From the NCBI GenBank assembly GCA_048881705.1, contig JBHLSH010000044.1, forward strand, positions 1 through 32,158: a stretch of 32,158 nt of DNA, written 5' to 3'. A program made the position numbers and the translations under genes. The DNA is from Candidatus Heimdallarchaeota archaeon (GTDB taxonomy: Archaea; Asgardarchaeota; Heimdallarchaeia; Hodarchaeales; Hodarchaeaceae). The notes under the pieces were generated by a model that made no database searches, had not been told where the DNA came from, and saw only the letters and a list, made by a program, of their open reading frames with translations. Shown here piece after piece: positions 2,095 through 32,158 of the stretch; position 1 is the stretch's first letter; every line of letters begins with the position of its first letter.

Positions 2095-2287
2095 GATGTT
2101 AAGATCAATTGAATCTGGGACTGGGCTTCAAAAGTCGAGAAAAAAAAGGAAGTTTATGTTAAAAAGATTCTCCCCCTCCTTGCAATATCCCTAAGTTATG
2201 GGATTCAAAATTGTAAATAACTTGGTTTCTTTCATTACCTATATACAAATAGAAGGGTTAATGAGAACCCGTTACCAATTAACCTGA

Positions 2288-3241: not shown

Positions 3242-3294
3242 GAATCTAATCTACTAGTACCAGTTGATCGGGATAAAATGCCCAGTACCTTTGT

Positions 3295-5062: not shown

Positions 5063-5788
5063 TCAGCTGGAACGATGTTTGTCTATTATCTTTTTGGCCT
5101 CTTCCAAATGATTTTCTATTTGGATTTGGTCGTACGACGGAGTTTGGGAGGCCAAGATCTGCATAATCCCCGTGGTTCTATGATTCTTTCGTTTTAAGGC
5201 AGAAATCAATTCCCGATCCACGGAGGGAATTAAGAATGAGTAATAAATGAGCTGATCTAGCGATAGGACGTATCTTTCCCAGAGTTTGGTTTTTCTGAGC
5301 GTATTGATCAATGAAGTGCGTAAGCTCTGCCAATGGGACAGAAGCGTATCTTTAACCTGATCAATTACGTTAACAAGGGTGTCGACTTCATCGTAAATTG
5401 TCCGAAAAGCTGTAATCAATGCCATTGGATATGAAGGGGCTTCGTGGTGGTAATAATAGGTGAGGGCTTCTTTGGAATAATCGAAAGGAACCAAGATGAA
5501 AAAGCCACGAAGAATCAAAGCAATATCTTTGCTATCTATTTCTTCAGCCCATAGGGTAAACAAGCGGGCACTACGGGGGTCAATATCAGGGATTTCCGCG
5601 TGAAAATCCTGGATGTTGGTATAGTCGACGTGGACAGAACCAATATCATTTAACACCTTGGCAGCGGTGAGTGTTCGATTGGAATAAAACCGATCGAGGA
5701 CGGAACGAATTTCAAATTGGATTAGACGATCTTTTTCAATCGCATCTATCCTTCCGTCATGAAACTTTAACCGAGGGATTTTTCGCAT
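5063..5788 (-). CDS. Hypothetical soluble protein
   Basis: Long ORF with protein-like composition. ATG at 5788 (MRKIPRL) preferred over the track start at 5833. No family recognised. Confidence 0.65.
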   Translation of the reverse strand: MRKIPRLKFHDGRIDAIEKDRLIQFEIRSVLDRFYSNRTLTAAKVLNDIGSVHVDYTNIQDFHAEIPDIDPRSARLFTLWAEEIDSKDIALILRGFFILVPFDYSKEALTYYYHHEAPSYPMALITAFRTIYDEVDTLVNVIDQVKDTLLSHWQSLRTSLINTLRKTKLWERYVLSLDQLIYYSFLIPSVDRELISALKRKNHRTTGIMQILASQTPSYDQIQIENHLEEAKKIIDKHRSS

Positions 5789-5936
5789 CGTATCATCGAC
5801 ACCGTATAATGTAGCGGAGCTAGAGCACAGCAATAAAAGAATATGCGATTTTGCACTTAAGCCCTGGCCACCTTCTTACATAAATATGATTATAGTGACA
5901 TAGATTACGAGAGGAGAACACAACATAAGGCAATTT

Positions 5937-7166
5937 GTGATGATTTTTTTGAATGAGAAGATTTCCAAAGCAACAAATGCAATCCAATCGGAACTTACCG
6001 TATTCACTCGTGATATAATAGCAATTCCTTCATTTTCAGATGAAATCTTGGTGATTAATAGAATTAAAGAAGAAATGAAGGAAATTGGATTTCAGGGAAT
6101 CACGTACGATAATATGGGCAATCTACGAGGTTCTTTAGGTTCTGGGCCAGGGCTTCTGGTGATAGACGCTCATGCTGATACAGTAGAAGTTGGTAATGAG
6201 TCAGGATGGAAACATGACCCTTTTGTGGGTAAACTAGAACAAGGAATTATTTATGGCCGAGGTGCATGTGATCAAAAGGGGGGCCTCGCCGCAGCGCTAT
6301 ATACTGGTAAGGTATTGCTAGATCTGGGTATTCCCGAAAATTTGACGTATATGGTCGTTGTTTCGGTTAAGGAAGAGATCTACGAAGGATTAAATTGGCA
6401 ATTCCTGGTGAAAGAAGAACGGATAGCGCCCGATGCTGTTATCCTCAGCGAGCCATCAAACTTGGATATTATTATCGGACAACGTGGTCGGGCTGATGTA
6501 AAAGTGCGTACATTCGGTATTTCCAGCCATGGTGCCACTCCTGACAACGGAGTTAACGCCATCTACAAGATTGCGCCTATTATTCTAGAGATAAAGGAAC
6601 TTCACGAGAAACTAGTATCAGATCCCATATTTGGGAAGGCAAGCATTACCGTGACCAAGATCGATTCAACGGCGCCTGCGATTAATGCGGTAGCAGACGG
6701 AGCCACAATTCATCTAGATCGAAGGTTAAATCGCGATGAAACAGATAAGACTGTACTTACTGAAATTCGGGCACTTCCCAGTGTAAAACTAAGTGATGCT
6801 GAAGTCTTCATCCCAGAATATGAATACACAAGTCCGAATGGATTATCTTATCCTATCAGGGCATACTATCCAACTTGGAAACTTGAAGCGGATCACCCCC
6901 TCGTTCAATCAGCAATCAAAGCATATAAAAATCAGTTTAGCAAGGAACCAAGGTTGGGGTATTGGCCGTTTTCAACTAATGGTGCTGCAACGAAAGGATT
7001 GTTTGATATTCCGACCATAGGTTTTGGACCTGGTAACCCGAAGTATGCACATACAACTGATGATCAAGTTCCAGTCGACCACCTGCTTAGGGCTGTTGAA
7101 TATTATTCTGCATTCACAATGTCATGGAAGAATGGAGAACGTACTATCCATGAGAATTCAGCTTGA
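5937..7166 (+). CDS. M20 family metallo-amidohydrolase (YgeY/ArgE/DapE-like)
   Basis: IDAHADTV, YGRGACDQKGG, KEE, LSEPS, FSTNG and GFGPG...AHT zinc-binding and signature motifs. Confidence 0.8.
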   Translation: MMIFLNEKISKATNAIQSELTVFTRDIIAIPSFSDEILVINRIKEEMKEIGFQGITYDNMGNLRGSLGSGPGLLVIDAHADTVEVGNESGWKHDPFVGKLEQGIIYGRGACDQKGGLAAALYTGKVLLDLGIPENLTYMVVVSVKEEIYEGLNWQFLVKEERIAPDAVILSEPSNLDIIIGQRGRADVKVRTFGISSHGATPDNGVNAIYKIAPIILEIKELHEKLVSDPIFGKASITVTKIDSTAPAINAVADGATIHLDRRLNRDETDKTVLTEIRALPSVKLSDAEVFIPEYEYTSPNGLSYPIRAYYPTWKLEADHPLVQSAIKAYKNQFSKEPRLGYWPFSTNGAATKGLFDIPTIGFGPGNPKYAHTTDDQVPVDHLLRAVEYYSAFTMSWKNGERTIHENSA

Positions 7167-7167
7167 T

Positions 7168-8544
7168 TCATTGTTTTTTCACCTTTTCTATAGATTCGAC
7201 TGATTCAATGATGATGTCTGTGGCGATCCTAGCTAGTTCATCTGTTAGGATAAGGGGAGGTAAAAATCGAGCAACGTTATCATAATGTCCTCCGATTTCG
7301 ATGAGCAAACCCCGCCTAAAACATTCGGTACGTAATGTTCTGGCTAGTTTGGATGAAGGTTTTTTTGTTTCTTTATCTTCTACCATTTCCAGGCCAAGCA
7401 TAAGACCCTTGCCTCGTACATCTCCCACAATTGAGCTAGTTTCTTCTAATTTCGACAATCTTTTCTTAATAAGTGCCCCAATGCTTTTCGCATAATTTCC
7501 TATATTGTTCTCCAGCATAAATTCAATAGATGCCACACCGGCTGCCATAGCCGTTACATTGCCACGAAAAGTTCCAATATGAGCGCCCTTACGCCAAATA
7601 TTTAGCTCTTCCTTGAAAGCAATGGCCGAAAGGGGAAAACCACCCCCTAGGGCTTTCGACATAGTGATAATATCGGGGATGGCATCATAGTGCTGAAACG
7701 AAAACAGTTCCCCTGTTCTGTAAAATCCTGCCTGAATCTCATCAAAAATAATTGGAACATGATAGTCTTCACTTGTATTCCGTATGCTCGGGATAAAACT
7801 ATCAGGCGGTATAATCGAACCTCCCTCTCCTTGAATCGGTTCCACTATGGTACCCGCGGGAAGAACGACCCCTGAATGGGGATCTTCCAGTACATGTTCG
7901 TAATATGATGCACATTCAAGGCCACAATCATTCGGAGTCCTGTCGAAGGCGCAACGGTAACAATAGGCATATGGAACAAAGTGTACCTCTGGCAACATCG
8001 GAATATACTTCTCTTTCCAATATTTTCCCGAGGTAAGTGAACTGGCCCCGGCTGTCATTCCATGGTAGGCCCCCTCAAACGAAATCAGCCCATGTCTTTG
8101 AGTATAATATTTGGCCAACTTGATAGCCATTTCTACCGCATCGGACCCTGTTGGCCCTCCAAATTGAATTCGTACAGTATCCTTTAGTTGACCGGGCATA
8201 AGAGAACGAAGTAACTCGATTAACTTCAATCGGATTTTTGTCGGAAAATCCAGTGTATGGGTGAGTTTTTGCTGTTGTGTTTTTACCGCGTCCATAATCT
8301 GGGGGTTACAGTGACCTAGCGCTAAAACGCCCGCCCCCGCAAAAAAGTCAATGAAAATGTTACCATCTATGTCTTGAACGGTGGCCCCTCGCCCTTCCTC
8401 CAATACTAGAGGGATTCCCCTCGGATAGGAGATCGCATCCCCCTCGATCTTTTTTTGCTTAGATAAAAGGGCGATTGCTTTCGGTCCAGGCAGTTCGGTC
8501 CTTATTTGGGGAGCTTCATCATAATTCAATTCTTCAAACTTCAT
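7168..8544 (-). CDS. Class III PLP aminotransferase, diaminobutyrate-2-oxoglutarate transaminase (Dat/EctB)-like
   Basis: QFGGPTGSDAVEMAIKLAK, FEGAYHGMT, EPIQGEGG, DEIQAG, SKALGGG (PLP Lys) and GAHIGTFRGN motifs. Confidence 0.85.
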   Translation of the reverse strand: MKFEELNYDEAPQIRTELPGPKAIALLSKQKKIEGDAISYPRGIPLVLEEGRGATVQDIDGNIFIDFFAGAGVLALGHCNPQIMDAVKTQQQKLTHTLDFPTKIRLKLIELLRSLMPGQLKDTVRIQFGGPTGSDAVEMAIKLAKYYTQRHGLISFEGAYHGMTAGASSLTSGKYWKEKYIPMLPEVHFVPYAYCYRCAFDRTPNDCGLECASYYEHVLEDPHSGVVLPAGTIVEPIQGEGGSIIPPDSFIPSIRNTSEDYHVPIIFDEIQAGFYRTGELFSFQHYDAIPDIITMSKALGGGFPLSAIAFKEELNIWRKGAHIGTFRGNVTAMAAGVASIEFMLENNIGNYAKSIGALIKKRLSKLEETSSIVGDVRGKGLMLGLEMVEDKETKKPSSKLARTLRTECFRRGLLIEIGGHYDNVARFLPPLILTDELARIATDIIIESVESIEKVKKQ

Positions 8545-9057: not shown

Positions 9058-9951
9058 TTAGGAATTAAGAAAGGTGATCATAGATTCATTAACCCGGTTA
9101 GGGACTTCTAGATGTACCCAATGTCCGCTGTTCGGATGATAAATAAGCTTGAATGAACCTTCAATCCGCTCTTCCAATCCATAGGTTAAGGATTTATCTA
9201 ATGCTATGTCTTGTTCTCCCCAAATTACCAGGGTAGGGCATTTAATCATCGGAAACCTTCTAAGGAAGTTTTCTTGATTTTCCTTCATTACCGAAAAAAT
9301 CTGAGCAATATTCCAATTTGCTCGATAGTAATTGATACTAGCTGTTAATGCCCCGGGTTGTAACCAGGCCCGAATATATCGCTGCATATCCGCTTCTGTA
9401 AAGGCCTGTTTATTGCTGAGAGATCCGCGTACCATTCGTTGAAGAACTTCACAATTATTATGAAGTAAAACCGCTTCAGGAATTTTGGGGATTTGGAAAA
9501 AGAAGACATACCAACTTTTCTGGAGCTGTTGAAATCTTATTGACCAAAAGGCTTCTAAAAGAGACACAGGATGCGGACAATTAAGGATAGCCAGTTTAGA
9601 TACCTTTTTGGTCATCATAGCTAAGTTCCATGCAATTGCTCCTCCCCAATCATGGCCAACCACCACTGCTTTTTCTTCTCCCAATGATTCAATAAGGCCC
9701 ACGATATCCTGAACCAGAAAATGGGTAGTATATTGATCCACTCCCTCAGGTTTACTACTCTTATTATAGCCTCGTAAATCGGGAGCAACAACCCGATAAT
9801 GCTCGGATAGAGACGGGATTTGTTTTCTCCATGTATACCAAAAATCAGGAAATCCATGGAGCAAAATTATAAGATCTCCAGTACCTTGTTCCACATAGTG
9901 CAACCTAATCTCCCCAATATCGATAAAATTATGCTTCCAATCTTCTTTCAT
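9058..9951 (-). CDS. Alpha/beta hydrolase, epoxide hydrolase-like
   Basis: HGFPDFWYTW, APDLRGY, GHDWGG (Asp nucleophile), WGEQD and GHWVH motifs. Confidence 0.9.
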   Translation of the reverse strand: MKEDWKHNFIDIGEIRLHYVEQGTGDLIILLHGFPDFWYTWRKQIPSLSEHYRVVAPDLRGYNKSSKPEGVDQYTTHFLVQDIVGLIESLGEEKAVVVGHDWGGAIAWNLAMMTKKVSKLAILNCPHPVSLLEAFWSIRFQQLQKSWYVFFFQIPKIPEAVLLHNNCEVLQRMVRGSLSNKQAFTEADMQRYIRAWLQPGALTASINYYRANWNIAQIFSVMKENQENFLRRFPMIKCPTLVIWGEQDIALDKSLTYGLEERIEGSFKLIYHPNSGHWVHLEVPNRVNESMITFLNS

Positions 9952-10085
9952 ATTTTAACCCACTAAATCACGCATAATTCGAATCTTTATCTGCACTTTG
10001 AATCATTCATGTCATTTTTGAAAAAGAAACTCCTTTCTTGGAGTCAAGAGAAATATAATAAAAAAGGAAACGAGTAGTTCCTTTC

Positions 10086-10757
10086 ATGGAAAAAATGCGG
10101 AAAATCAGTATCGAACTCTCGCCTAAGTTGAAAAGGTCATATTCTAATCCCAATTTTGGAAGCCTTTTTGTAAGAGAGGTACCAAATATAAAAAAACATG
10201 AAATGTTGGAACAAGGAAAAAAAAATTTGGAAAAGATGATAAGGGAGGCGGATTTGGAGAGCGATAAGGATGAAATACTGCAAAATTATGCTTCCTATTT
10301 CAAAAGGTGGGGAAAAACATACCCTATTGAATTTCAATTGAAAACTATCCGGGAGGGGGGACAGTTTCCCCAAGTTTCGGTCCTAGTTGATAGTATGTTT
10401 TTGGCCGAACTTAAAAGCAGGATACTTACTTCAGGACATGATACAGATGCTATCCAGGGAGACTTACTGTTTGATGTGTCAGATGGGGGAGAAGGATATG
10501 TGAAAATCAACGGGAAAGAACAAACTCTGAAAGCAGATGACGTTATCCTGAGGGATAATAACGATATCCTAGCGAGCGTCTTGTATGGACCCGCAATGAA
10601 AACCTCGATTAATCCGAATACACGTAATCCTCTCTATCTCGCATGGTGTCCTTATGGAATGCCCGAGGTGCGTATCAAAGAGCATTTAAACAATATTCTC
10701 TCAAATTTGGAACTGGTATTCGATTCACCATTCTCTGCAGTCCAAATTCACCAATAG
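10086..10757 (+). CDS. Stand-alone B3/B4 (PheRS beta editing-like) domain protein
   Basis: YFKRWGK.YP, LVDSMFLAEL, GHDTDAI, DVILRD and YGP pattern of the B3/4 family. No synthetase domains. Confidence 0.75.
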   Translation: MEKMRKISIELSPKLKRSYSNPNFGSLFVREVPNIKKHEMLEQGKKNLEKMIREADLESDKDEILQNYASYFKRWGKTYPIEFQLKTIREGGQFPQVSVLVDSMFLAELKSRILTSGHDTDAIQGDLLFDVSDGGEGYVKINGKEQTLKADDVILRDNNDILASVLYGPAMKTSINPNTRNPLYLAWCPYGMPEVRIKEHLNNILSNLELVFDSPFSAVQIHQ

Positions 10758-20735: not shown

Positions 20736-22058
20736 ATGGATGAGAAGGTAACTGAAGATAAAACCTCATTTAGTACCAGTGCACTTGGCGTCCTGTTCTT
20801 AGCAGTCTTCATTGACTTGTTAGGATTTGGAATAGTACTTCCCCTTCTTCCTTTCTGGGTGTCGAGCATTGGAGGGAGTGCCATTATTTATGGTTTACTG
20901 GTTTCATCCTATAGCCTGATGCAGTTCATCTTTTCTCCATTTTGGGGAAGGCTTAGTGACAGAAGAGGGCGTCGGCCAATTATCCTTGTTGGATTAACTG
21001 GTACTTTAATTTCATTCATCTTATTATCGATTACCGCGTTATTGTTCTCTGAATCCTTACTTATGCTTTTCCTGTCTCGTATTCTTGGAGGAATTTTCAC
21101 AGCGGCCACACTACCCACGAGTCAAGCTTATATTACAGATACTACAACTGGTGATGAACGAGCAAAAGGTTTTGGACTGATTGGAGCTGCTTTTGGACTC
21201 GGGTTTGCCATTGGCCCCGCTCTCGGCGGTTTTCTTTCAATTTGGGGTTATGCTGCTCCTGCGCTATTTTCAGCGGTTTTGGCTTTCATCAATCTGATAG
21301 GGGGGATTATTCGGCTTCCGGAATCATTGGACGAAAAGAAAAGAGAAGAATTGATGTCTCTCAAAATTACGAGAAAGGAAGCTAGTCCAAACATTTTCAA
21401 GATTATTCTTAGCAATCCCACGATTATGCTGATTATTCTTCTATTTGCAAGTATTTCCTTTGTTTTTTCCAGCTTGGAAGCAACTCTTGCTCTGTTTGGA
21501 GAAGCACGATTTGGGCTTGATGAATCGCTTACAGGATTTGTTTTCTTGATTGTCGGAATTGTGGCAATTATCACTCAGGGAGGGATTTTACGACCTTTAT
21601 CATCACGTTATGCGGATACTCTCCTCATTGCCTCGGGCATCTTAGCCTTGGTTATTGGGTTCGTGGGTTTAAGTTCCGTAACTGATTTACTGGGAATGAT
21701 GATATGGGTTATTCCTCTGGCATTTGGATCCTCGATTGCCAATCCAGCCTTGGGGGCTTCATTATCAAAAAATGCTCCTTCAGATATATCAGGGGCGGTG
21801 TTGGGTGTAAATCAAGGTTCGGGTTCTTTAATGCGAATTTTCGGGCCCATTGTGGGTGCTGGGTTATTTGAAATACAAGAAACTTTGCAATGGCTTTTGG
21901 CTGCTGGAATTCTTATTATCTGTTTGATCCTAGCAGTAGTTTTACACAGAATAGCTGTTAAACCAGTATCACTTAGTGTTTGTTTAAATTGCGGAAATCA
22001 ACTAAAAGCAGGCATTGCTAATTGTGGAAACTGCGGAATCCAACTTGAAGTTTCATGA
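20736..22058 (+). CDS. MFS transporter (TetA/DHA1-like) with C-terminal zinc-ribbon
   Basis: FIDLLGFGIVLPLLP, motif A GRLSDRRGRRP, motif C GFAIGPALGG, about 12 TM, and C-terminal CLNCG...CGNCG. Confidence 0.9.
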   Translation: MDEKVTEDKTSFSTSALGVLFLAVFIDLLGFGIVLPLLPFWVSSIGGSAIIYGLLVSSYSLMQFIFSPFWGRLSDRRGRRPIILVGLTGTLISFILLSITALLFSESLLMLFLSRILGGIFTAATLPTSQAYITDTTTGDERAKGFGLIGAAFGLGFAIGPALGGFLSIWGYAAPALFSAVLAFINLIGGIIRLPESLDEKKREELMSLKITRKEASPNIFKIILSNPTIMLIILLFASISFVFSSLEATLALFGEARFGLDESLTGFVFLIVGIVAIITQGGILRPLSSRYADTLLIASGILALVIGFVGLSSVTDLLGMMIWVIPLAFGSSIANPALGASLSKNAPSDISGAVLGVNQGSGSLMRIFGPIVGAGLFEIQETLQWLLAAGILIICLILAVVLHRIAVKPVSLSVCLNCGNQLKAGIANCGNCGIQLEVS

Positions 22059-22088
22059 ATTTCTAATTACAACTTTCCTCCCAATACT

Positions 22089-22124
22089 TCAAATGGTAAT
22101 CTCGATGTTTAATATGCACTCTAA
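22089..22124 (-). repeat. Dispersed gene-tail repeat, copy 1 (most degenerate)
   Basis: Contains the exact 17-mer GTAATCTCGATGTTTAA (22096-22112) shared with 24723 and 31707. Minus strand reads LECILNIEITI*. Confidence 0.85.
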
Positions 22125-22314
22125 TCAGGGCCTTTTCTTATTCTTTCGCAGTTGACCGTGTTTAGGGCTAGAAGAACAGGCGTAGGTGCCCAGGCAACCG
22201 TAAGAGCAGGCGTGGTTGTATTGGGAAACCTAGTTATCAAAAGAACTGATTGGGCAAAAGAAATCAAAGAAGTCCGTGAGGGATCAAATTAGAAATCGTT
22301 GCTACTCTGATCCC

Positions 22315-22644
22315 CTAGCCAGATGAGTATTTTCTTACATTAAAATATACAAAAAGAAGCCACACCGCGTATATCAACGGAAATACGAATCCTAGGAGCA
22401 TCAAGATTGGAAAAATTTCATTGGTAGCTAAAAGCCCAATAATCGGGATCTCTGGCAATAGCCATAATTTCGTAGCATCATACCAGACTGGTATCAATAG
22501 CAGATAGCCCCAGCCAATCCCCATAAACGCATTTGCTGCCACTGAAGGAATTCGCCCCTTTTGTCTACTTCTCATTACCATCAGATATCCTGAGCTGCCA
22601 AGACTTGTTACTAGCGGCCCGTAAAGGAAAAACATCTCCAACAA
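22315..22644 (-). CDS. Small hypothetical membrane protein (about 3 TM)
   Basis: Three hydrophobic segments. Start is TTG 22644 or the ATG two codons later. Confidence 0.55.
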   Translation of the reverse strand: MLEMFFLYGPLVTSLGSSGYLMVMRSRQKGRIPSVAANAFMGIGWGYLLLIPVWYDATKLWLLPEIPIIGLLATNEIFPILMLLGFVFPLIYAVWLLFVYFNVRKYSSG

Positions 22645-22792
22645 GCCAAGTCAATCCCTTGCCAACAAAAAGGAAAAAAAAATGATAGGATTTTTCCATC
22701 AGCTAGTAGATTCATAACATACTTAGAAACTCTTTCTAGTTTGATTATAGATCCTCAAAATGGAAATATTTCTGTTGGCAGTTTCTAAAAGA

Positions 22793-22808
22793 GACCCGTA
22801 ATCGGGTC
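22793..22808 (-). terminator. Possible hairpin terminator downstream of the 22889 gene
   Basis: GACCCG-TAAT-CGGGTC, 6-bp stem, followed on the minus strand by TCTTTT. Confidence 0.25.
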
Positions 22809-22888
22809 ATTCCACTTTGTCTACTTTCTGGATTGGCCAGCTCAAACGAACCACCAAAAAATTTTGCCCGTTCCGTAGCTTTCCTTAT

Positions 22889-24406
22889 CTATCCCTGTTT
22901 ACTTCCGTTTGCTTTTCCTCTTAGCCTTCTAAAGATGATGAACAGAACCACTACTACAACTAATATAAATAGCCAGCTTGGATCAATCGCGGCGTTTATT
23001 GAAAAACTGAAACCAAACTCAGGTTCAATTGGAGGCGAGTTATTAAGTAGTAATAACATATTGATTAAATTCACCCAAATCCCAATTTGTAACAGCAATA
23101 ACGACATCAATATTGCGATACCAGGTGCCCCATAGATGAGTGAATCGAAAATCAGCGTTAGAATACCAGGAGACACTAGTCCAGGTTCAAGGACTGCAAT
23201 TCTAGGGTTGTTTGGGTGATAGTATACTTGAACTGGTTTTTCAACCGCATATTTTTCAGTCAAGGGCAGCGGATCACTTTTCTTGGCATCCTGATAGCCA
23301 AAAACCCTCCTTTGGGAATGGTACCTTTGTAGATGGATATCATATTCATAGTACACATTAAATGCGGACGCCCCCGTCCCATTGGAAAAGGTTGTGGCTA
23401 CAACTTCTCCTTGGATAGTGGGCCACGTTTGACTTTTGACTCCATAATAAATTCCCCTGATAATGGACTTATGAATAAGTTTGCTGATTTCAAAGAAAAA
23501 GTAAATTGGAATGTTTATGAGAATTAGGGGCAGAAAAAGAATCTGGACGGGGAAAGAAAGAGCGAGATATCGTTCTCGCGTTGACTTTACCTTTATCGCC
23601 TCTGAATCCTCTGGAGAAATAATAAAATTTCTAAAATCCTGTCTTTCAAGGTGAAAAAGACAACAAAATGCTGCTAGAGCAGAGTTAAACACACTTCGTG
23701 GATCGTAAATCTTAACCAAATCATTTTGAATGCGGTATTTTTCGGATTGCTTCGTGGTTACCCCAGTTTTCACGTAAAAAGCGAGCCTTTCAGCTGAATC
23801 GACGATTCTTAGTTCAGAATGTAGACCCCTGTACGCAATTTCATGATAGATTCTCTCAGGCCTATTAAGATACTTATAGTCCGAAGTAAATCGGCGATTA
23901 TCCGCTGTATCCATACTGAGAAAACGTTTTTGACCAAAAGAGTTGAACTTCAAGGAAGAAAGAAGAATACCTTTATCATCGTAAATCTGGTAGTTTCCTT
24001 TGTGTGGTAATTCCCGGATTTTGCCCATATACTGTTTTTCCATATTCCAAAATTTAATATCAGGCAGAACGGCTTTTCTCAAAACTTTATAGTAGAACAG
24101 AATAAATGCACTTATCCAAAATGAGGCTAGAAGGATTATGAGAATGTACATTCCTTGTCTTTGGTATTCAGAGGATAAGATATTGGGAGATTGAATACTG
24201 CCAAATCCAGCCGCCGCTACAGGCACTGAAATCACTCCCATCACCCAGATCAAGAGATATTTTAAGGTTGATTTCCGTCCAATCAGAGAAATCGTCCCAT
24301 TGACGTCTCTAATAGTGAATTTGGTATATTTAAATACCCTAGAGCCAGCAGCTGAAATTTCTAGTACAGTAATGTTCTTGTCACTCGTTTTTTCTGGTAT
24401 GCCCAT
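22889..24406 (-). CDS. Membrane protein with C-terminal DUF3592 domain and a possible LURP-one/scramblase-like N-terminal domain
   Basis: SQTWPTIQGEVV...YEY...Y.SQR...Y......V.VYYHPNNPRIAVLEPG is DUF3592-like. About 5 TM. Beta-rich middle region ends in a hydrophobic helix. Confidence 0.7.
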   Translation of the reverse strand: MGIPEKTSDKNITVLEISAAGSRVFKYTKFTIRDVNGTISLIGRKSTLKYLLIWVMGVISVPVAAAGFGSIQSPNILSSEYQRQGMYILIILLASFWISAFILFYYKVLRKAVLPDIKFWNMEKQYMGKIRELPHKGNYQIYDDKGILLSSLKFNSFGQKRFLSMDTADNRRFTSDYKYLNRPERIYHEIAYRGLHSELRIVDSAERLAFYVKTGVTTKQSEKYRIQNDLVKIYDPRSVFNSALAAFCCLFHLERQDFRNFIISPEDSEAIKVKSTRERYLALSFPVQILFLPLILINIPIYFFFEISKLIHKSIIRGIYYGVKSQTWPTIQGEVVATTFSNGTGASAFNVYYEYDIHLQRYHSQRRVFGYQDAKKSDPLPLTEKYAVEKPVQVYYHPNNPRIAVLEPGLVSPGILTLIFDSLIYGAPGIAILMSLLLLQIGIWVNLINMLLLLNNSPPIEPEFGFSFSINAAIDPSWLFILVVVVVLFIIFRRLRGKANGSKQG

Positions 24407-24708
24407 TGTAAACCACTAATTTGTTACTATCGTAAGACTCATCCGTACTCCGTTACGACCTTCCGAGTGACACTGAAGTAATCTATAAGGCTTATGCCCT
24501 CGAAAACAGCAGTGATTAAGCTACAGTTTGAGGAAACAAAATTGGAAGTTCTAAAGAGCCTCGGGATGTTCGGAAAGATTAAGGGCTTTTCTTCCCAAAG
24601 GGATAGGAAAGAAACGCAAGGCCTTTCGACCAATCAGCCGCTTCTGAACTATTAAGATCCGTCAGTACTTTTTTTTATCACGGATTTCAACTAGAATAAA
24701 AGAAATAA

Positions 24709-24784
24709 AACGATTCTAGATAGTAATCTCGATGTTTAACTTGCGTACTAACTCCTTGTAGCGATTTCTGATATGATGATTCAT
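24709..24784 (-). repeat. Dispersed gene-tail repeat, copy 2 (intact 22-codon ORF at 24716-24784)
   Basis: Minus strand ATG...TAG = MNHHIRNRYKELVRKLNIEITI*. 24709-24761 matches 31693-31745 at 44 of 53 nt by manual count. Confidence 0.9.
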
Positions 24785-24900
24785 AGAAAAAGGAATTATA
24801 AAATGAAAAAAACTATATTCATTACATGAAAAAAGACACGAACCAAGGCATTGATGGATTTCTCTTTATTATTGGTTTAACTTCGAACAGATGTGAATGA
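24738..24900 (+). repeat. Upstream region duplicated at 29980-30145
   Basis: About 85% identical by manual alignment over the first ~134 nt, with a few indels. Homology continues into the two esterase genes. Confidence 0.9.
24786..24803 (+). promoter_or_regulatory. Candidate archaeal BRE-TATA promoter of esterase 1
   Basis: GAAAAAGGAA-TTATAAAA, identical at 30029-30046, about 95 nt upstream of each ATG. Confidence 0.45.
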
Positions 24901-26354
24901 CTATGAAAAAAAAGGCACTTGGAAGTTTTAGTATAGTCTTGTTATTCGTTGTATTTACTCCAGTCTTAGCTTTGAAGGTTGATGATGGTGAAGCAGAATT
25001 CTATTTAAACCCCAAAGTGGTTCAAGAAAACCGCGTTGAAGCGTTTAATACCTTACTTTTTGACCTCGCTGGCTTTACGGATAATGCCACTAAGATGATC
25101 AAAATTAATGAATTTATGGCTGAACAGCAGCCGTATGGGTTTCCCGTAACCCATAATGACAAAATTGTCTTTATTTATCGGACAAATAATACATTACAGG
25201 TGGAAATTGACGGAAGGATGACAGGACAGGTACCACTCGAGCATATCGAAGGAACAGATTTCTTCCATAAACAATTTACATTTTATAATGATTCACAGGG
25301 GGGTTATGGTTTCCGAGAAGATGGAGGTTCTATGTTAAAGGATCCTTTAAATCCAGATACACTCCTCGTTGGCATCCCGCCACAATTTATCGTAGTATCC
25401 AATTTTCAAATGCCTGAATATACTGATGATGGAGCCTATCTATTTTCCGACACTACAGGGTCCGTTATGCTGAATGAGACAATTTTCTCGACGAAAACTA
25501 ATCATAATTATACAATTAACATTTACCTCCCCGCAGGATATAATGACTCACAAACCCAACGCTATAAATCGGTTTATGTGGCTGATGGGGAGTTATATGC
25601 CTATGCGTGGAAGGCGCGCAATACCCTAGATTACTTGGACTTTTATAACAAAATAGATCCATTGATTGGTGTATTCATTACACCCGTTGATTTTTCATTG
25701 TATCGGAATAATGATTTAACCGATAACCGGAAAGATCATGCCGATTTTATTGTCGAAGAATTAATGCCGTATATCGATTCGAATTATCGTACATTCAATG
25801 ATTCTACAGCACGGGCTCATCTAGGATCATCTCATGGAGGGTTTTTTTCCCTTTACCTAGGAGCAGAGTATTCCGATTTCTTTAAACTCATAGGAGCACA
25901 CTCACCTAGCCAATATGCGAGCCAATATCTTAAACAACTGTTCACAGATTCTTCGAAGGTTGACGGGATGCGATTTTATTTGAATGGAGGAACTTATGAG
26001 CAGGGAATTCTGAATCACGCGTATTCTATTTCCGAAATTCTGGCAGAAAAAGGATACGCGGGAAAATTCCGCGCCTTTCACCAAGCCCACGCTGCGGGCC
26101 AATGGCGAGCCACGCTAGGCGAATTGTTGACCTTCCTGTTTACTGATGAGGCGTCAGACTACTCAGGGTCACCAATTATGTTTGGGAACATCGAAATTCC
26201 ATCAACAACAACCACAACTACAACTAATCCAGAAACCACTTCCTTTGGTCTAACTGTCCCGTTTTTCGGGTTGATGATCCTAATACTAGTATTACAGAGA
26301 AAAAACTCCATATTTCGGATAACTGGGAAAAGAAAGGAAAAGAGGGAAGGATAA
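24897..26354 (+). CDS. Exported, membrane-anchored esterase (Fes/putative-esterase alpha/beta hydrolase with N-terminal E-set/CBM48-like domain), paralog 1
   Basis: Signal peptide, LKDPLNP, IYLPAGY, ADG, FIVEELMPYID, GSSHGG nucleophile elbow, GTYE, FHQAH, Thr linker, TTSFG + TM + basic tail. Confidence 0.85.
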   Translation: MTMKKKALGSFSIVLLFVVFTPVLALKVDDGEAEFYLNPKVVQENRVEAFNTLLFDLAGFTDNATKMIKINEFMAEQQPYGFPVTHNDKIVFIYRTNNTLQVEIDGRMTGQVPLEHIEGTDFFHKQFTFYNDSQGGYGFREDGGSMLKDPLNPDTLLVGIPPQFIVVSNFQMPEYTDDGAYLFSDTTGSVMLNETIFSTKTNHNYTINIYLPAGYNDSQTQRYKSVYVADGELYAYAWKARNTLDYLDFYNKIDPLIGVFITPVDFSLYRNNDLTDNRKDHADFIVEELMPYIDSNYRTFNDSTARAHLGSSHGGFFSLYLGAEYSDFFKLIGAHSPSQYASQYLKQLFTDSSKVDGMRFYLNGGTYEQGILNHAYSISEILAEKGYAGKFRAFHQAHAAGQWRATLGELLTFLFTDEASDYSGSPIMFGNIEIPSTTTTTTTNPETTSFGLTVPFFGLMILILVLQRKNSIFRITGKRKEKREG

Positions 26355-26971
26355 CACTCTCACCTGCGTCTTTGTATCAGGATTGACACACCTAACGCAC
26401 CCAGGATAATTAGCGCCAGCATTAGCGCGTTGAGCTGGACTATAGGAAATCCGTCTACAGGATTACCTAGGGGCGATACCCGGGGGAACCCATCGTGATT
26501 ATCTGCCGAACCCTCTATATGGTAGGGGTGATCGACTACCCCATCTAGGTCGTCGTCTGGGCCCGTCCATTCACTCCAGTAGTTGTACCGGAACGTATTA
26601 TTCCACCCGTCATCAAATGCCTGGCAAGAGCCCAAGGGCTTATTGGCGCTAAAATCATTCCAGATGATCAAACAGTTGTCGCTTATTCTTAGTTCGACCC
26701 CATAGTCGCGATTATCCGCAAGTAAATTCAGGGAAACGATAATGTTGTATGATGCCCACAGCCTAATGCCGACGCCGTGCTGAAGGCTGACCGTGTTCTC
26801 GGAGAGCATGCTAACGCGTGAATTATCCAACGAAATCCCGGAATACTCGTTATAACTAATGGTATTCCTGGAAATAGAGTTGTTCCTCGAGTCTACCAGA
26901 AAAATTCCATCCCCTTCATTACTGGTGATTGTGTTGTTCGTAATGGCGCTATTATCTGAAGGTTCGAGATT

Positions 26972-27178
26972 AATCCCGTTCCCACTATTTTTGCTGGCTG
27001 TATTCCCAGAAATAGTGCTACTATCCGAATCCTCTAGGTCAATCCCGTTCCCACTATTTTTGCTGGCTGTATTCCCAGAAATAGTGCTACTATCCGAATC
27101 CTCTAGGTCAATCCCGTTCCCCCTATTTTTGCTGGCTGTGTTCCCAGAAATAGTGATACTATCCGAATCCTCTAGGTC
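26972..27178 (-). repeat. Intragenic tandem repeat, 3 x 69 nt (23 aa, GIDLEDSDSSTISGNTASKNSGN)
   Basis: Units start at 26972, 27041 and 27110. Units 1 and 2 are identical, unit 3 differs at 3 nt, and a partial fourth starts at 27179. Confidence 0.95.
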
Positions 27179-27785
27179 AATCCCGTTCCCCCTGTTATTA
27201 CTGACCATGTTCCCAAAAATAGTGCTATCGTCGGTACCCCATAGTTCAATTCCGTTCTCACCGTTATTACTGACCGTGCCCCCAGAAATAGTGCTGTGCG
27301 CTGACCGGAGAAGCTGGATGCCGTGTCCACCGTTGTCGTGGATGGTATTGGCAGTAATATTGCTTTCTTCTGAATCGATCACATGAATCCCGTCCGCTCT
27401 ATTTTTAATGACCGTATTCCCCAAAATGGCACAGTTCTCCGAATTTTCTAGGAGAATGCCTATCCCAGAATATATTCCCCAGTCTCCGTCCCCTACGGTA
27501 TTGATGACCATGTTCTCTAAAACAGTGCAAAAACCTGAATCCCGTAGGCCAATCCCGTCCCCACCAGTATTATTGACCGTATTCCCAAAAATGACGCAGC
27601 TTTCTGAGAATTCCAGTCGAATACCTTTCCCGGAATCCCACCCCCAACCTCCTTCCCCATTATGAGTGACCGTGTTCCGTAAAATGGTGCAGTGCTCTGA
27701 ATTTTCCAGCCGAATGCCATCCCCACTATTATTGATGACATTGTTGTTTGTGATCTTCAAAGCAAAACTGTAGACTGCGAAGATA

Positions 27786-28581
27786 CCAGTGGAGACATGA
27801 GAAATGCTTTGGTCTGACACCGTTACCTGAGTGCAATTGACCAGCACCACCTGAGCCGCTCCTGCGGGAATAGATCCCCCCATCTTATGCTGCCAATACA
27901 CGACAGGTTTCCCATTGAGGGAATTATTCTCCACTTCCGCCTGCAAGAAGTCTTCCATCGCCTCACCCTCAACGTCCAAACTATTGTTCAACAAAATATT
28001 GTGCAGGATCCAACTATTTCCCGAACTATATAGGGAAATGCCCGTTTCCCTGTTGTTGCCTATGATATTACTGGCAATGGTGCTATATCCTGAACCTCCC
28101 AGAATAATCCCGTTCCCACTGTTATTATTGATTATGTTTCCCGATATGGTGCATTTCTCCGACTCCCCCAATTCTATACCTCCCCCGCGGTTATTGAGGA
28201 TACTATTGTTGATCAAACTACTGTCGCTTGAGTTGATCAAGCGAATACCGCCCTTAGTACTGTTGATAATCCTTGTGTTTGCGATTATCAGGCCAGAACT
28301 GTAAGCTGCGAGGACTCCAGTGGAGACATGAGAAATGCTTTGGTTCGACACCGTTACTTGAGTGCAATTGACCAGCACAACCTGAGCCGCTCCCGTAGGA
28401 ATGGAGCCCCCGCTCTTATGCTGCCAATACACGACAGGTTTACCATTGAGGGAATTATTCTCCATTTCCGCTTGCACAAAGTCTTCCATCACCTCACCCT
28501 CAACATCCAAACCATTGTTCAAAAGAATATTGTGCAAGATCCAATTATTTCCCGAACTATGTAGGGAAATGCCCGTTTCCC
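27786..28581 (-). repeat. Intragenic duplication, 27786-28050 and 28317-28581 (offset 531 nt = 177 codons)
   Basis: Both copies encode ETGISL.SSGN.WILHNILLNN.LDVEGE.MEDF.QAE.ENNSLNGKPVVYWQHK.GGSIP.GAAQVVLVNCTQVTVS.QSISHVSTG. Confidence 0.9.
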
Positions 28582-29544
28582 CGTGACTGCTTATGAGATT
28601 GCTGGTAATGGTGCAATAACCTGCGTAAAAGAGACCAATCCCGTTCCCATTAGTATTGTTGATTGTATTCCCTGAGATAGTACTAAAGTCCGAACTCGAC
28701 AGAATCCCGTACCCATCGATAATGCCAATCCTATTCCCCGAAATAGTGCTAAAATCCGAACTCGACAGATCAATCCCTTTCCCACTGTTAGTCGTAACAG
28801 TGTTGTCTCTGATGGTGCTGTTCCCTGAATCCCACATACGAATCCCGTTCCCCCTGTTATTTATGACCATATTCCCAAAATGGTGCTGTTTTTCGATTCC
28901 CCCAATTCTATACCTGCCCCCCCGTTATTACGGATAGTATTGTTGATAATAGTGCTATTTTCAGACCTATCCAGCTCAATGCCTGTCCCCCCGTTATCGC
29001 GTACAGTATTGTTGAGCAATATATTTCGGTTTGAATTCTCGAGACGAATGCCAGCTCCATCGGTGGTGGTGATTACGTTCTCTGAAATCCACGCATTTCT
29101 TACGGTGTCCAAGAGAATACCCTCACTCAGACCTCGCCCCTCTACCCAGCAATTGATGAGGTGAAAGAAAACAGTTGTATAGCTAATATGAATCAATGGA
29201 CGCCCATCCGCCTGGATATCTGAACTCCCAGTAACGTTCAGGCCTAAAATGAGATACGGAGAAGCAGCGGTTCCGTTCCCCGTCCAATTCCATTGCATTG
29301 CCAGTTGCGCAAAATCTTGGTTTCCCCAGATACGAATTCTGGAATGGGGTACATAGGCGATCGAAAAGCCCTCAGATACCCGGGAATGGACATCCAGCCG
29401 TTGAACCAGCAGGGGCAAGAACAACAGAAAAAGGATCAGCGTTCGCCCGCAGGATCGGGATCGGCCTCGTGCCCTCATCTTGGGATCTGCCCCGTAGTGT
29501 ATTTAGTTAGGCCATTTTTACTTGATAAATTACCTTAAAGGAAT

Positions 29545-29901
29545 TTAGCTTTTTTGATATGTCTTGTCCTTTTTGTGGGATTCCAACTTTTCCACCATTT
29601 CTTGAGGTGAATAAACATTACCTTCTTCATCAGACACATCTGATCTGAAAAGGAATGTTTTAATCTCATCAATGTCGTGATCGGTGCGTAAATACCACAT
29701 TCCTCGCGGAGTATTCATCAAAACCACCGTGCTAATTTTGATGACCTTTTTACAGGATTTACAGACCACAGAGAAGAGGCTGCCATCGAGTAACTGTTCT
29801 ACCAGACCGGGATCCAACCAGGTGCAAATGCTTTGCGGTAAGAAAGCTTCAACGGGATTCCCACAGGAACAGTCAAAGTGAATAACGCTATATGATGTCA
29901 T
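29545..29901 (-). CDS. CpXC domain protein (Cys-rich)
   Basis: DCSCG...I....DP.L...LLDG.LF...CKSC pattern. Confidence 0.75.
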   Translation of the reverse strand: MTSYSVIHFDCSCGNPVEAFLPQSICTWLDPGLVEQLLDGSLFSVVCKSCKKVIKISTVVLMNTPRGMWYLRTDHDIDEIKTFLFRSDVSDEEGNVYSPQEMVEKLESHKKDKTYQKS

Positions 29902-29945
29902 ATTGGCTTAGTTCCTCGTACTCCTAGAGAACCTCTACTATAAGA

Positions 29946-30017
29946 TCAGAGTCCTCTAATAAAATTTTTCTCAATGGTTAACTTGCGTACCAAGTCTTTG
30001 TAGCGATTATTGATCAT
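29946..30017 (-). repeat. Dispersed gene-tail repeat, copy 3 (23-codon ORF with divergent 3' end)
   Basis: Minus strand ATG...TGA = MINNRYKDLVRKLTIEKNFIRGL*. Confidence 0.85.
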
Positions 30018-30028
30018 GATGATTTATA

Positions 30029-30046
30029 GAAAAAGGAATTATAAAA
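30029..30046 (+). promoter_or_regulatory. Candidate archaeal BRE-TATA promoter of esterase 2
   Basis: Identical to 24786-24803. Confidence 0.45.
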
Positions 30047-30141
30047 TGAAAAAGACTATATTTTTAACATGAAAAAAGACGAGACCCAAAGCATTAATGG
30101 GGTTCTCTCTATTATGAGTTTAAACTTCAGAACAGATGTGA

Positions 30142-31620
30142 ATGAGTATGAAAAAGAAGGCACTTGGAAGTTTTAGTATAGTCTTGCTTTTCGTTTTATG
30201 TACTCCAGTCTTAGTTTTGAACGTTGATGGAAGTAAAGCAGAATTTTATTTAAAACCTAGAATCGTTCAGGAAAACCGCGTTGAAGCATTTAATACTTTA
30301 CTTCTTGAACTGGCGGGTATTTCGGATAATACCACGAAGATGAGCAAAATTAACGAGTTTATGACGGAACAACAACCGTATGGTTTTCCTGTGACTCATG
30401 ATGATGCAATAATTTTCATTTATCGGACAAACAACGCCTCAGTGGTCGAGATTGAAGGTACTCCAGATCGTGTTCGCGTAGAACTCCATCACATTGAAGG
30501 AACCGATTTATTCTATCGGCAATTCACATTTCCTAATGATGCCCGTGGAAGTTATGGATTTCGAGAAGATGGGGGCCCTGGGTTAAAGGATCCGTTAAAT
30601 CCCATTAAAATTGCCCTTGGCTCGCTTGATGTCATTCCCGATACATTCTCCGTTGGCCAACAGTTACTGGTAATTTCCGATTTCCAAATGCCTGAATATG
30701 CTGATGATGGAGCTTATCTGTTTTCTGAAACAATCGGTTCGGTAATGGTAAATGACACATTTTTTTCTGCTAATACAGAGAGTAACTACACGCTTCAGAT
30801 TTATCTTCCCGCAGGATACAACAAATCACAAACACAACGCTATGCATCGGTTTATGTGGGTGATGGAGTGTATTACGCATATGCGTGGAATGGTCAACAG
30901 ATCCTTGATTACCTAGACTTTCATAACAAAACAGAGCCATTGATTGGTGTATTTATTACCCCTATTGAGTATTCAGCCAATCGTAATCGTGATTTTTTAT
31001 TCGGCCGGAAAAATTATGCTGATTTTATTGTAGAAGAATTAATGCCATATATCGATTCGAAATATCGTACAATAAATGATTCTAAATCTAGAGCTCATAT
31101 AGGTTCATCGGGGGGTGGTGTTTTTTCCCTGTACATCGTAGCAGAGTATCCCCAATTCTTTAAACTGGCGGGAGCACAATCAGTGAGTGTTTATGAGTAT
31201 TCCACAGGGATGATTTCGGGAACAACCTATCCTACTTTAGAAGAATACTTCAGACACTCTCCCAAAATTGAGGATACACGATTTTATCTCAATGGTGGAA
31301 CATATGAAGAAGGAATTCTGAAAGAAGCCCATAAGATCGCCAATACACTAGCAGCAAAAGAATATGTAGGGAAATTTCGAGCTTTTCACCAGGCCCATGA
31401 TCCTGGTCAATGGCGAGCCACGCTAAGCGAAATGCTGACGTTTTTATTTACTGATGCCGAACCAGACTATTCAGGATCACCCATTTACTATGGGAACATC
31501 GGTAAAGCAACACCTTTCCCAAGCGTATCCATCTTTGGGGTGATGCTCCTCATCCTTGCGTTCCGTAGAAAAAACTCAGTTTTTCGAACACTTATCCTGA
31601 AGGTCTCAGGAAAGGAATAA
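30142..31620 (+). CDS. Exported, membrane-anchored esterase, paralog 2
   Basis: Collinear with 24897-26354. GSSGGG elbow, GTYE, FHQAH, ATPFP + TM + RRK tail. Confidence 0.85.
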   Translation: MSMKKKALGSFSIVLLFVLCTPVLVLNVDGSKAEFYLKPRIVQENRVEAFNTLLLELAGISDNTTKMSKINEFMTEQQPYGFPVTHDDAIIFIYRTNNASVVEIEGTPDRVRVELHHIEGTDLFYRQFTFPNDARGSYGFREDGGPGLKDPLNPIKIALGSLDVIPDTFSVGQQLLVISDFQMPEYADDGAYLFSETIGSVMVNDTFFSANTESNYTLQIYLPAGYNKSQTQRYASVYVGDGVYYAYAWNGQQILDYLDFHNKTEPLIGVFITPIEYSANRNRDFLFGRKNYADFIVEELMPYIDSKYRTINDSKSRAHIGSSGGGVFSLYIVAEYPQFFKLAGAQSVSVYEYSTGMISGTTYPTLEEYFRHSPKIEDTRFYLNGGTYEEGILKEAHKIANTLAAKEYVGKFRAFHQAHDPGQWRATLSEMLTFLFTDAEPDYSGSPIYYGNIGKATPFPSVSIFGVMLLILAFRRKNSVFRTLILKVSGKE

Positions 31621-31628
31621 AAAAAAAG

Positions 31629-31648
31629 GCCTGACCTTTCGGTCAGGC
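31629..31648 (-). terminator. Hairpin + T-tract terminator between convergent genes
   Basis: GCCTGACC-TTTC-GGTCAGGC, 8-bp stem (GAAA loop on the minus strand), with an adjacent A-run at 31619-31627 that gives a T-run on the minus strand. Confidence 0.55.
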
Positions 31649-31692
31649 AAACAGCTCTGTAAACATCTAGAGTCCAGTTTTAGACTGATTAG

Positions 31693-31762
31693 AATGACTC
31701 TAGATCGTAATCTCGATGTTTAACTAACGTACCAATTCTTTATAGTTAGTCCTGACTGACAC
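31693..31762 (-). repeat. Dispersed gene-tail repeat, copy 4 (internal nonsense codon)
   Basis: Minus strand 31762-31700 = VSVRTNYKELVR*LNIEITI*. Confidence 0.9.
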
Positions 31763-31802
31763 TTAGACAAACCATCCTATAGTTGGACTGAATCCGATGT
31801 TC

Positions 31803-32158
31803 TTATGATTTCTTCCGTCTACGGGAAAAATACTTCGAGAATAGCAATAGTGTGCTAATAACCAGAATATCGATTAATCCTAGCCGGTGACCCGTTATTT
31901 CTGCAGTTGTTATCGTTGTAGTGGTTGTTGGCTTTGTAGGTGTTGTTGTTGTAGTCGAGGGTTCCTCTGTAATGAAAACAAAAACCGTATTACCTTCATT
32001 CCCCAACTTGTCCTTCGCTACGAAGTAGTACTCGACCCCCGTGATGTCGAGCGGCGGGGCGGGGAGAGCACTGCTACAGCAACCGCTCTTGTCCAGAGCC
32101 AAGGGTTGCTTCGTGTAGGCCAGGCCTCCCTGTATGCGGTGAAATACGTGAAGGCTCT
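31803..32158 (-). CDS. C-terminal part of an exported surface protein (Ig-like domain, Thr linker, TM anchor), 5'-partial
   Basis: Frame stays open to the window edge: SLHVFHRIQGGLAYTKQPLALD...PPLDITGVEYYFVAKDKLGN...PSTTTTTPTKPTTTTT...TM...RRRKKS. Confidence 0.75.
   Translation of the reverse strand, partial: SLHVFHRIQGGLAYTKQPLALDKSGCCSSALPAPPLDITGVEYYFVAKDKLGNEGNTVFVFITEEPSTTTTTPTKPTTTTTITTAEITGHRLGLIDILVISTLLLFSKYFSRRRKKS

Follow-up and report, generated by a model that had tools for sequence, protein, structure and literature searches.

Direct repeats in an Asgard archaeal contig as displaced 3' ends of the tfb gene, with a putative homing endonuclease as candidate driver

Four intergenic repeats as displaced ends of tfb

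A stretch of 32,158 nucleotides of Candidatus Heimdallarchaeota archaeon (positions 1 to 32,158 of contig JBHLSH010000044.1, here called the window; its genome is designated G000) was analysed for four short direct repeats that lie between its genes. These repeats are almost certainly displaced 3' ends of tfb, the gene of the archaeal TFIIB homologue, and mark serial insertions. Each displaced copy was shown to consist of the last 7-22 codons of tfb and the stop codon, plus roughly 85 nt of the tfb 3' untranslated region (3'UTR) and terminator where these are undecayed. As the driver of such arrays we favour, at a probability of about 0.5 and by analogy with known homing systems, the endonuclease-triggered replacement of gene ends.

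The copies had been reported in an earlier reading of the window (the original prediction) and were found again at the same sites (Table 1), copies 1 and 3 being traced over 22090-22124 and 29969-30017. Each is on the minus strand and outside the long open reading frames (ORFs), and the minus-strand peptides are those that had been given for them. The 17-mer GTAATCTCGATGTTTAA is exact in three copies (positions 22096, 24723 and 31707) and does not occur elsewhere in the 3.96-Mb assembly, even with one mismatch allowed. When a tail profile was searched with nhmmer, E-values of 4e-16, 7e-15, 1e-8 and 0.011 were obtained for copies 2, 4, 3 and 1, respectively. Counting over the whole assembly added a fifth copy at C137:3796-3839, on the minus strand and at the end of a 3.9-kb contig. 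From the tyrosine codon to the stop, copies 2 and 4 differ at 7 nt, namely six synonymous third positions and one AAG to TAG change, and the probability of 15/2187 previously calculated for such a bias is arithmetically correct.

In its own genome, the tail peptide gave only weak tblastn matches to the C-termini of three TFB paralogues. When 40 related genomes were searched for a parent ORF, the peptide was found to be the extreme C-terminus of ORFs of 312-355 amino acids (aa), which end ...TEVTVRNRYKELVRKL(S/N)IEIT(V/I). The ORF at L025:2078-3046 matched the Pfam families TFIIB (5.7e-43, in two stretches) and Zn_Ribbon_TF (1.6e-19), and the window peptide aligns with its last 18-22 residues. 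Since this TFB shares 95-100 % identity within its Hodarchaeales genus and about 73 % with the TFB of Heimdallarchaeum, we take the parent to be the main, conserved tfb of this Asgard genus. The genes upstream of it encode the housekeeping proteins Vps4, ESCRT-II, S2, RimK, RadA and PAC2.

A tfb orthologue was not found in the G000 assembly, in which contig C15 (L124, 1-3000) stops just after vps4, ESCRT-II and S2. The relative used for collinear comparison (G001, contig C11) runs on past these genes with rimK, radA, pac2 and tfb, the segment that is missing from G000. The window contig ends 400 nt past copy 4. The tail repeats probably break the assembly, hence the missing rimK-radA-pac2-tfb segment; the contig end cuts the array within a surface-protein gene, and the array probably continues towards tfb.

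Repeat unit and synonymous variation

Tail, stop codon and tfb 3'UTR together form the repeat unit. In the lineage of G000 and G001 it reaches about 85 nt beyond the stop, through two hairpins and a T-run, and this module is kept by window copy 4 and the C137 copy and decayed in copy 2. The unit of copy 4 is longer than first noted, running from 31765 down to about 31617, and its 3'UTR module can be aligned both to the sequence that follows the live G001 tfb and to six fragments from that genome. When hairpin pairing was compared among nine copies, 82 % of the pair cells held standard pairs compared with 25-45 % in slid controls, and changes on both sides were observed at 7 of 15 pairs, in a small sample of nine related sequences. 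Such covariation fits each copy being a former working gene end with its terminator, and is supportive rather than conclusive.

The copy 2 peptide shows 94 % amino-acid identity to the end of the G001 TFB, and the similarity of copy 3 to other tails ends after ...TIE. Copies 2 and 3 sit in a duplicated unit of about 1.65 kb that consists of tail, spacer and esterase gene.

Nonsynonymous and synonymous change was compared among 22-codon tails, a dN/dS comparison having been suggested with the original prediction. Live tails of different species gave a proportion of synonymous differences (pS) of 0.76, a proportion of nonsynonymous differences (pN) of 0.020 and a pN/pS of 0.026, and displaced fragments compared with one another gave 0.80, 0.108 and 0.135, respectively. 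On contig G020:C49, the same 22 aa are encoded by three fragments and by the end of a tfb ORF that the contig edge cuts, with about ten synonymous differences among them, AGA versus CGC being one. Copies within an array are as divergent as the tfb genes of different species. We infer that each copy stems from a different functional tfb end and that decay, by stops and truncations, would begin after displacement. The copies would vary synonymously because each derives from a working tfb end, and this origin explains the earlier statistic without selection on the intergenic copies. Protein-level selection in the past of the repeat, which the original prediction had deduced from that statistic, is borne out, as the tails are the C-terminus of TFB and differ almost only synonymously across the genus.

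Insertions in the window and in related genomes

When the window was compared with G001, collinear segments were observed at 21000-22086 (C11:68800-69886, 94 % identity; the distal flank with the MFS gene), 22667-24511 (C11:66958-68800, 90 %; the DUF3592 block) and 29471-29928 (C11:65021-65477, 86 %; the CpXC gene). Specific to G000 are the blocks 22087-22666, with a 109-aa ORF and copy 1, and 24708-29470, with copy 2, esterase A and NosD. Both blocks carry a tail copy at their distal edge, and homology to G001 restarts 3-9 nt past the stop codon (3 nt in the case of copy 1).

Displaced tails were found in 11 of the 22 genomes of the genus and are co-oriented with tfb wherever tfb shares the contig. 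Searches of 19 genomes from the same order or class gave none, and neither did the tfb loci of Heimdallarchaeum, Jordarchaeia, Archaeoglobaceae, Bathyarchaeota and Nitrosarchaeum. The arrays occupy the space between tfb and conserved downstream genes, and their tails bound variable blocks of accessory genes. This cargo differs among genomes and includes NosD/beta-helix proteins, PIN toxins, helicases, a P-type ATPase, a beta-lactamase, methyltransferases and solute-binding proteins; the shortest cassettes measure 0.53 kb (L029).

An empty site is seen in G002, where a gene of the MBL fold follows 214 nt after tfb. At this site G014, whose flanks are 92-95 % identical to those of G002, carries a 0.98-kb insert bounded by a repeat of ~93 nt, which holds the last 8 codons, the stop and ~66 nt of 3'UTR. 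Before the same MBL gene, three tail fragments are present in G004 and five in G018. A replacement terminus in frame, with the native terminus kept downstream as a fragment, is seen in G014 compared with G002 and in the arrays, and the window shows displaced copies only. The 5' edges of 36 displaced copies fall at codon -22 (±1-2 codons) in 23 cases and at -18 to -15 in nine, with four shorter copies, and this clustering points to defined break or junction sites.

In the tfb genes of G002 and G014, the closest pair, divergence amounts to 2.2 % in the first 846 nt and rises to 10 % in the last 120 nt, where all differences are at third positions. In the other 35 genome pairs the two divergence figures are similar and none has a comparable excess. 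The 3' tract of this pair is a putative conversion tract adjoining the insertion, of a kind that a conservative integrase would not leave.

Two further observations concern tfb loci of other archaea. In other Heimdallarchaeia, a frame with a second, diverged ESTIRNRY... helix (Table 1) starts ~300 nt past tfb at three loci and ~1.9 kb past it in L053; it may be a small gene resembling the TFB C-terminus or an old displaced end. On the Thermoplasmata contig L076, a tfb tail copy, VTIRNRYKELIRELG (2526-2570), is found at the contig end, some 280 nt past tfb, and may be an independent case outside Asgard archaea.

A LAGLIDADG-like gene beside the tails

A LAGLIDADG gene or its remnant adjoins a tail at seven tfb loci, and at those where tfb is visible it immediately follows the live tail. 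This gene is intact or nearly so in G018, G011 and both contigs of G020, where it is the first behind the live tail and is convergent with tfb; remnants adjoin a tail in G014, G021 and G013. The family contains two conserved LAGLIDADG-like motifs, HI.GDG and FL.AF..DDG, with acidic residues, and its match to Pfam LAGLIDADG_3 is weak (E 8e-4, below the cut-off). A protein-atlas look-up gave only leads below 0.9, to LAGLIDADG_3 and helix-turn-helix (HTH) clusters. When a structural model (confidence score pLDDT 78) was searched using Foldseek, the best PDB matches were all to I-DmoI, followed by PI-SceI; the I-DmoI matches had a probability of 1.00 and template-modelling (TM) scores, by target, of 0.52-0.56. 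In its motifs and predicted fold the family thus resembles LAGLIDADG homing endonucleases of the I-DmoI type, and its cleavage activity and target are putative.

At other loci (G008 and G015; Table 1), paralogues of the family lie between direct repeats of the 5' end of a neighbouring gene. Both repeat copies in G008 translate to a similar N-terminus of ~33 aa. These loci look like a gene-head version of the same design.

A protein of 403-408 aa also recurs beside the tails. Its gene comes just after a tfb tail, convergently, in three genomes (L121, which is G000:C137 2091-3317; L025:4890-6113; L030:1136-2344), and the protein has no Pfam family and a Cys-rich, zinc-ribbon-like C-terminal end. 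The product of this recurrent 408-aa gene (C137, G001 and G013) was considered as a LAGLIDADG protein and rejected.

Mechanism of insertion and its alternatives

Insertion would have proceeded by recombination and not by a conservative integrase. A double-strand break near codons -22 to -8 of tfb would be repaired from a donor that supplies a recoded replacement tail together with cargo. The old tail would thereby be pushed downstream, and earlier copies of tail and 3'UTR would provide the right-hand homology. The break-maker would most likely be the free-standing LAGLIDADG homing endonuclease, as in the mobile ORFs (mORFs) of fungal mitochondria.

Several results weigh against this proposal. 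The Foldseek E-value is modest (3e-3), and a sequence-profile search of the PDB using the endonuclease family gave only HipB-like HTH matches (E about 0.05-0.2). Neither a six-frame hmmsearch of G000 nor a search of G001 found a family member or remnant, so that the driver for the window itself is extrapolated from relatives and unproven. The G000-specific blocks have a tail at the distal edge only, which a simple scheme of insertion into an existing tail does not predict, and the empty sites in G001 that match copies 1 and 2 show no clear tail relic. In G014, the displaced repeat of ~93 nt is not closer to the G002 tail than the live repeat is, and a native copy is not discernible.

Recombination might also need no dedicated nuclease: plain homologous or homology-facilitated illegitimate exchange could use the highly conserved tfb as one anchor and earlier tail/UTR copies as the other. 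RadA-type swaps from related species, or circles looped out between tails and re-entering by a single crossover, would then build the arrays, and the endonuclease genes would be mere passengers at a hot spot. No integrase was found at the arrays and no endonuclease in G000 or G001, a recombination tract exists in tfb, other sets of gene-end repeats occur in G000 (C62, C23, C56 and C99) and cassettes go down to 0.53 kb without any mobility gene, all of which agrees with such recombination. However, unaided homologous recombination works poorly on repeats of 70-150 nt that are about 80 % identical, random joins would not put 23 of 36 fragment edges at one codon, and the association of the endonuclease family with duplicated ends of three different target genes goes beyond what is expected of a passenger. 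We consider it somewhat unlikely. The tails could also be true att sites. Tail-bearing cassettes would then move in and out of the tfb 3' end through a site-specific recombinase whose gene lies elsewhere, either XerA of the host or an enzyme not yet recognised, much like integron cassettes, IMEX elements or cis-mobilisable elements that pile up by tandem accretion. In favour of this, the 5' edge of the repeat is sharp and recurs, the unit is well defined and extends across the stop codon, and an inverted repeat lies inside it; the cassettes consist of one to a few genes with no mobility genes, and there is one XerA-like recombinase per genome. On the other hand, no recombinase gene lies beside tfb or in the arrays. 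Tyrosine recombinases (PF00589) were not found near the arrays, the matches in G000, G001, G004, G018 and G020 being all on other contigs, and they are absent from the top 25 Pfam families of 74 cargo ORFs; serine recombinases were not searched for separately. Conservative site-specific recombination would also leave unexplained the raised divergence more than 100 nt upstream into tfb, the hairpin arms covary instead of holding a fixed binding sequence, and the fragment edges fall in at least three classes. Thus, of the first interpretation in the original prediction, att sites formed from duplicated 3' ends of an insertion-target gene, the geometry stands, with housekeeping tfb as target, but the integrase-mediated part is opposed both by the lack of a tyrosine recombinase near the arrays and by the tfb tract, which argues for gene conversion; att sites of any kind are unlikely.

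The other two interpretations in the original prediction fared worse. Tail scars of a transposase were refuted by its own reasoning, as the parent is a housekeeping gene. Copies 2 and 3, which start with ATG and lie about 115-125 nt upstream of esterase genes, suggest a birth-and-death family of ~22-aa micropeptides, the third interpretation, or else a regulatory motif in the DNA ahead of these esterase paralogues. However, the ATG is common to these two copies only through their local duplication, and copy 1, copy 4 and the copy on C137 do not precede an esterase gene. The fragments of other genomes have varied 5' edges, frequent stops and no conserved start codon, the peptide is the exact C-terminus of TFB, and the third-position variation is inherited from a coding past. 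Both a micropeptide and a motif are therefore highly improbable.

Gene content of the window

The features of the window and of the comparable loci are listed in Table 1. Esterases A and B are paralogues with 62-63 % identity. In G000 as in G001 the CpXC gene comes immediately after a tail copy, and its product shares 85 % aa identity with L025:18049-18405. The two NosD ORFs overlap by 10 nt and probably represent a single gene of ~1040 aa that has been split by a frameshift or by an error in the assembly; a run of 69-nt (23-aa) beta-helix repeats lies in the larger of them. Neither Rfam families nor tRNA genes (ARAGORN) were found in the window, and a tRNA-anchored island was rejected for this reason.

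Table 1 Coordinates of tail copies and genes in the window and of selected features at other loci
Feature	Position	Strand	Remarks
MFS transporter gene	20736-22058	+	Conserved chromosomal flank, distal array end; Pfam MFS_1 2.6e-60
Copy 1, tfb tail relic	22089-22124	-	Last 7 codons LNIEITI and TGA stop; distal edge of G000-specific 0.58-kb block
Small cargo block	22125-22666	-	109-aa ORF (22315-22644), no Pfam family; counterpart not found in G001
DUF3592 cargo block	22667-24511	-	505-aa DUF3592 protein (22889-24406), Pfam DUF3592; common to G001
Copy 2, tfb tail	24716-24784	-	From codon -18 (IRNRYKELVRKLNIEITI), TAG stop, decayed 3'UTR
Esterase A (485 aa), cargo	24897-26354	+	Pfam Esterase 1.6e-21
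NosD/beta-helix surface-type protein, cargo	26360-29478	-	Two overlapping ORFs (26360-28870, 28861-29478); Pfam Beta_helix, NosD
CpXC zinc-ribbon protein gene	29545-29901	-	Pfam CpXC
Copy 3, tfb tail	29946-30017	-	Codons -18 to about -4, then diverged (…TIEKNFIRGL*); paralogous to copy 2
Esterase B (492 aa), cargo	30142-31620	+	Pfam Esterase 9.6e-22
tfb 3'UTR module of copy 4	31617-31699	-	Hairpin 1, spacer, hairpin 2, T-run
Copy 4, tfb tail	31700-31765	-	From about codon -21, internal TAG, TAG stop
Thr-rich membrane-anchored surface protein, C-terminal part, cargo	31803-32156	-	42 % identity to L025:13914-15725
L125 (G008:C52), repeats	6115-6223, 7885-7993		First ~33 codons of a 396-aa gene
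L125 (G008:C52), LAGLIDADG paralogue	6308-7588
L128 (G015:C411), repeats	82-299, 1987-2204		220 nt
L128 (G015:C411), LAGLIDADG paralogue	728-1969
Diverged ESTIRNRY... helix	L047:11206-11256, L055:1831-1881, L066:5026-5079, L053:5769-5822

Other duplicated gene ends in the genome

Further gene-end repeats were observed in G000. Contig C62 (L122) holds five co-oriented copies (1-69, 1071-1243, 3130-3285, 5825-5932 and 9508-9641) of a repeat made of the last ~15 codons and the ~75-nt hairpin-bearing downstream region of a gene for a 193-aa membrane protein (9563-10144, minus strand); this is a second array of the same kind, and the contig also carries a vps4-like paralogue. On C23 (L123), the last ~19 codons and the stop of a 1216-aa SMC gene are repeated (147-207 and 5764-5825), with the copy 5.6 kb downstream. 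The displaced copy still reads as an SMC C-terminus, with two conservative substitutions (V to I and M to V). Direct repeats of 80-190 nt are present on C56 (20268-20386 and 24766-24884) and C99 (1052-1239 and 4827-5014; 1236-1315 and 7338-7417). One copy in each pair overlaps an ORF (179-328 aa) at its 3' end, and these repeats may be further displaced gene ends.

A tentative generalisation is that free-standing LAGLIDADG endonucleases of Hodarchaeales carry recoded ends of essential genes (tfb, and possibly those for SMC, Vps4-like and membrane proteins). They would cut the resident ends, put the recoded ones in their place and, in repeated rounds, build integron-like stacks of foreign cargo behind core genes. 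If true, this would be an integrase-free route of gene gain and a chromosomal counterpart of the fungal mitochondrial mORFs.

Significance

A hypervariable gene-capture site has been identified behind a core transcription gene in Asgard archaea, and a puzzling signal, intergenic repeats that vary only synonymously, has been explained. Hodarchaeales are among the closest archaeal relatives of eukaryotes, and the routes by which Asgard archaea gain genes bear on eukaryote origins. Replacement of a gene end by a recoded copy, triggered by an endonuclease, provides a testable mechanism for gene-tail cassette arrays that have no integrase. If it holds, the displaced tails record successive donors, and pairs of endonuclease and recoded tail represent a natural target-site immunity by synonymous recoding. 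In practical terms, the repeats break assemblies, and the missing tfb region matters for gene-presence scoring in such metagenome-assembled genomes.

Comparison with known systems

A full-text literature search of incomplete coverage, which included the Asgard mobile-element papers PMC8813620 and PMC11529989, gave no mention of tfb/TFIIB as an insertion site. The tfb arrays resemble integron cassette arrays and clusters of attC sites lacking integron-integrases (CALINs) in their co-oriented, small, promoter-poor cassettes, in repeats of about 60-150 nt with inverted repeats, and in cargo that varies between close relatives. Unlike integrons, they have no IntI, their repeats are a translated gene end plus terminator, and their platform is an essential gene and not attI. 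Of the integron hallmarks, neither IntI nor attC architecture was seen at tfb, where the upstream genes are housekeeping ones; attC sites were not modelled formally.

Prophages and islands that reside in the 3' ends of protein genes, such as e14 in icd of E. coli, rely on a tyrosine integrase of their own and on a short core site. Such elements likewise bring in a replacement 3' end and leave the old one as a direct repeat, whereas in the tfb arrays no integrase was found and gene conversion flanks the insertion. The free-standing endonuclease genes of T-even phages spread by intronless homing, in which a break is repaired and flanking markers are co-converted. They share with the present loci a free-standing endonuclease gene beside a conserved gene, but the phage cases are not known to build arrays or to duplicate the end of the target gene.

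By analogy, the mORF of fungal mitochondria is the closest published parallel to the tfb tail arrays. In the mitochondrial atp6, atp9, cox2 and nad3 genes of Glomus and atp6 of Allomyces, a LAGLIDADG or GIY-YIG ORF carries a foreign C-terminal copy of its target gene, which replaces the native end in frame, while the native end stays downstream and the differences are mainly synonymous (PMC3630166). The archaeal loci differ in that they lie on a chromosome and target tfb as well as other genes, the endonuclease gene is free-standing and convergent instead of fused in frame, the duplicated unit includes the 3'UTR, and arrays of up to six or more tails with kilobases of unrelated cargo are formed; the window itself, moreover, has no endonuclease gene. 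What tfb loci of relatives share with the mORFs is a putative endonuclease gene beside an in-frame replacement terminus, with a displaced end downstream and mostly synonymous differences between the two.

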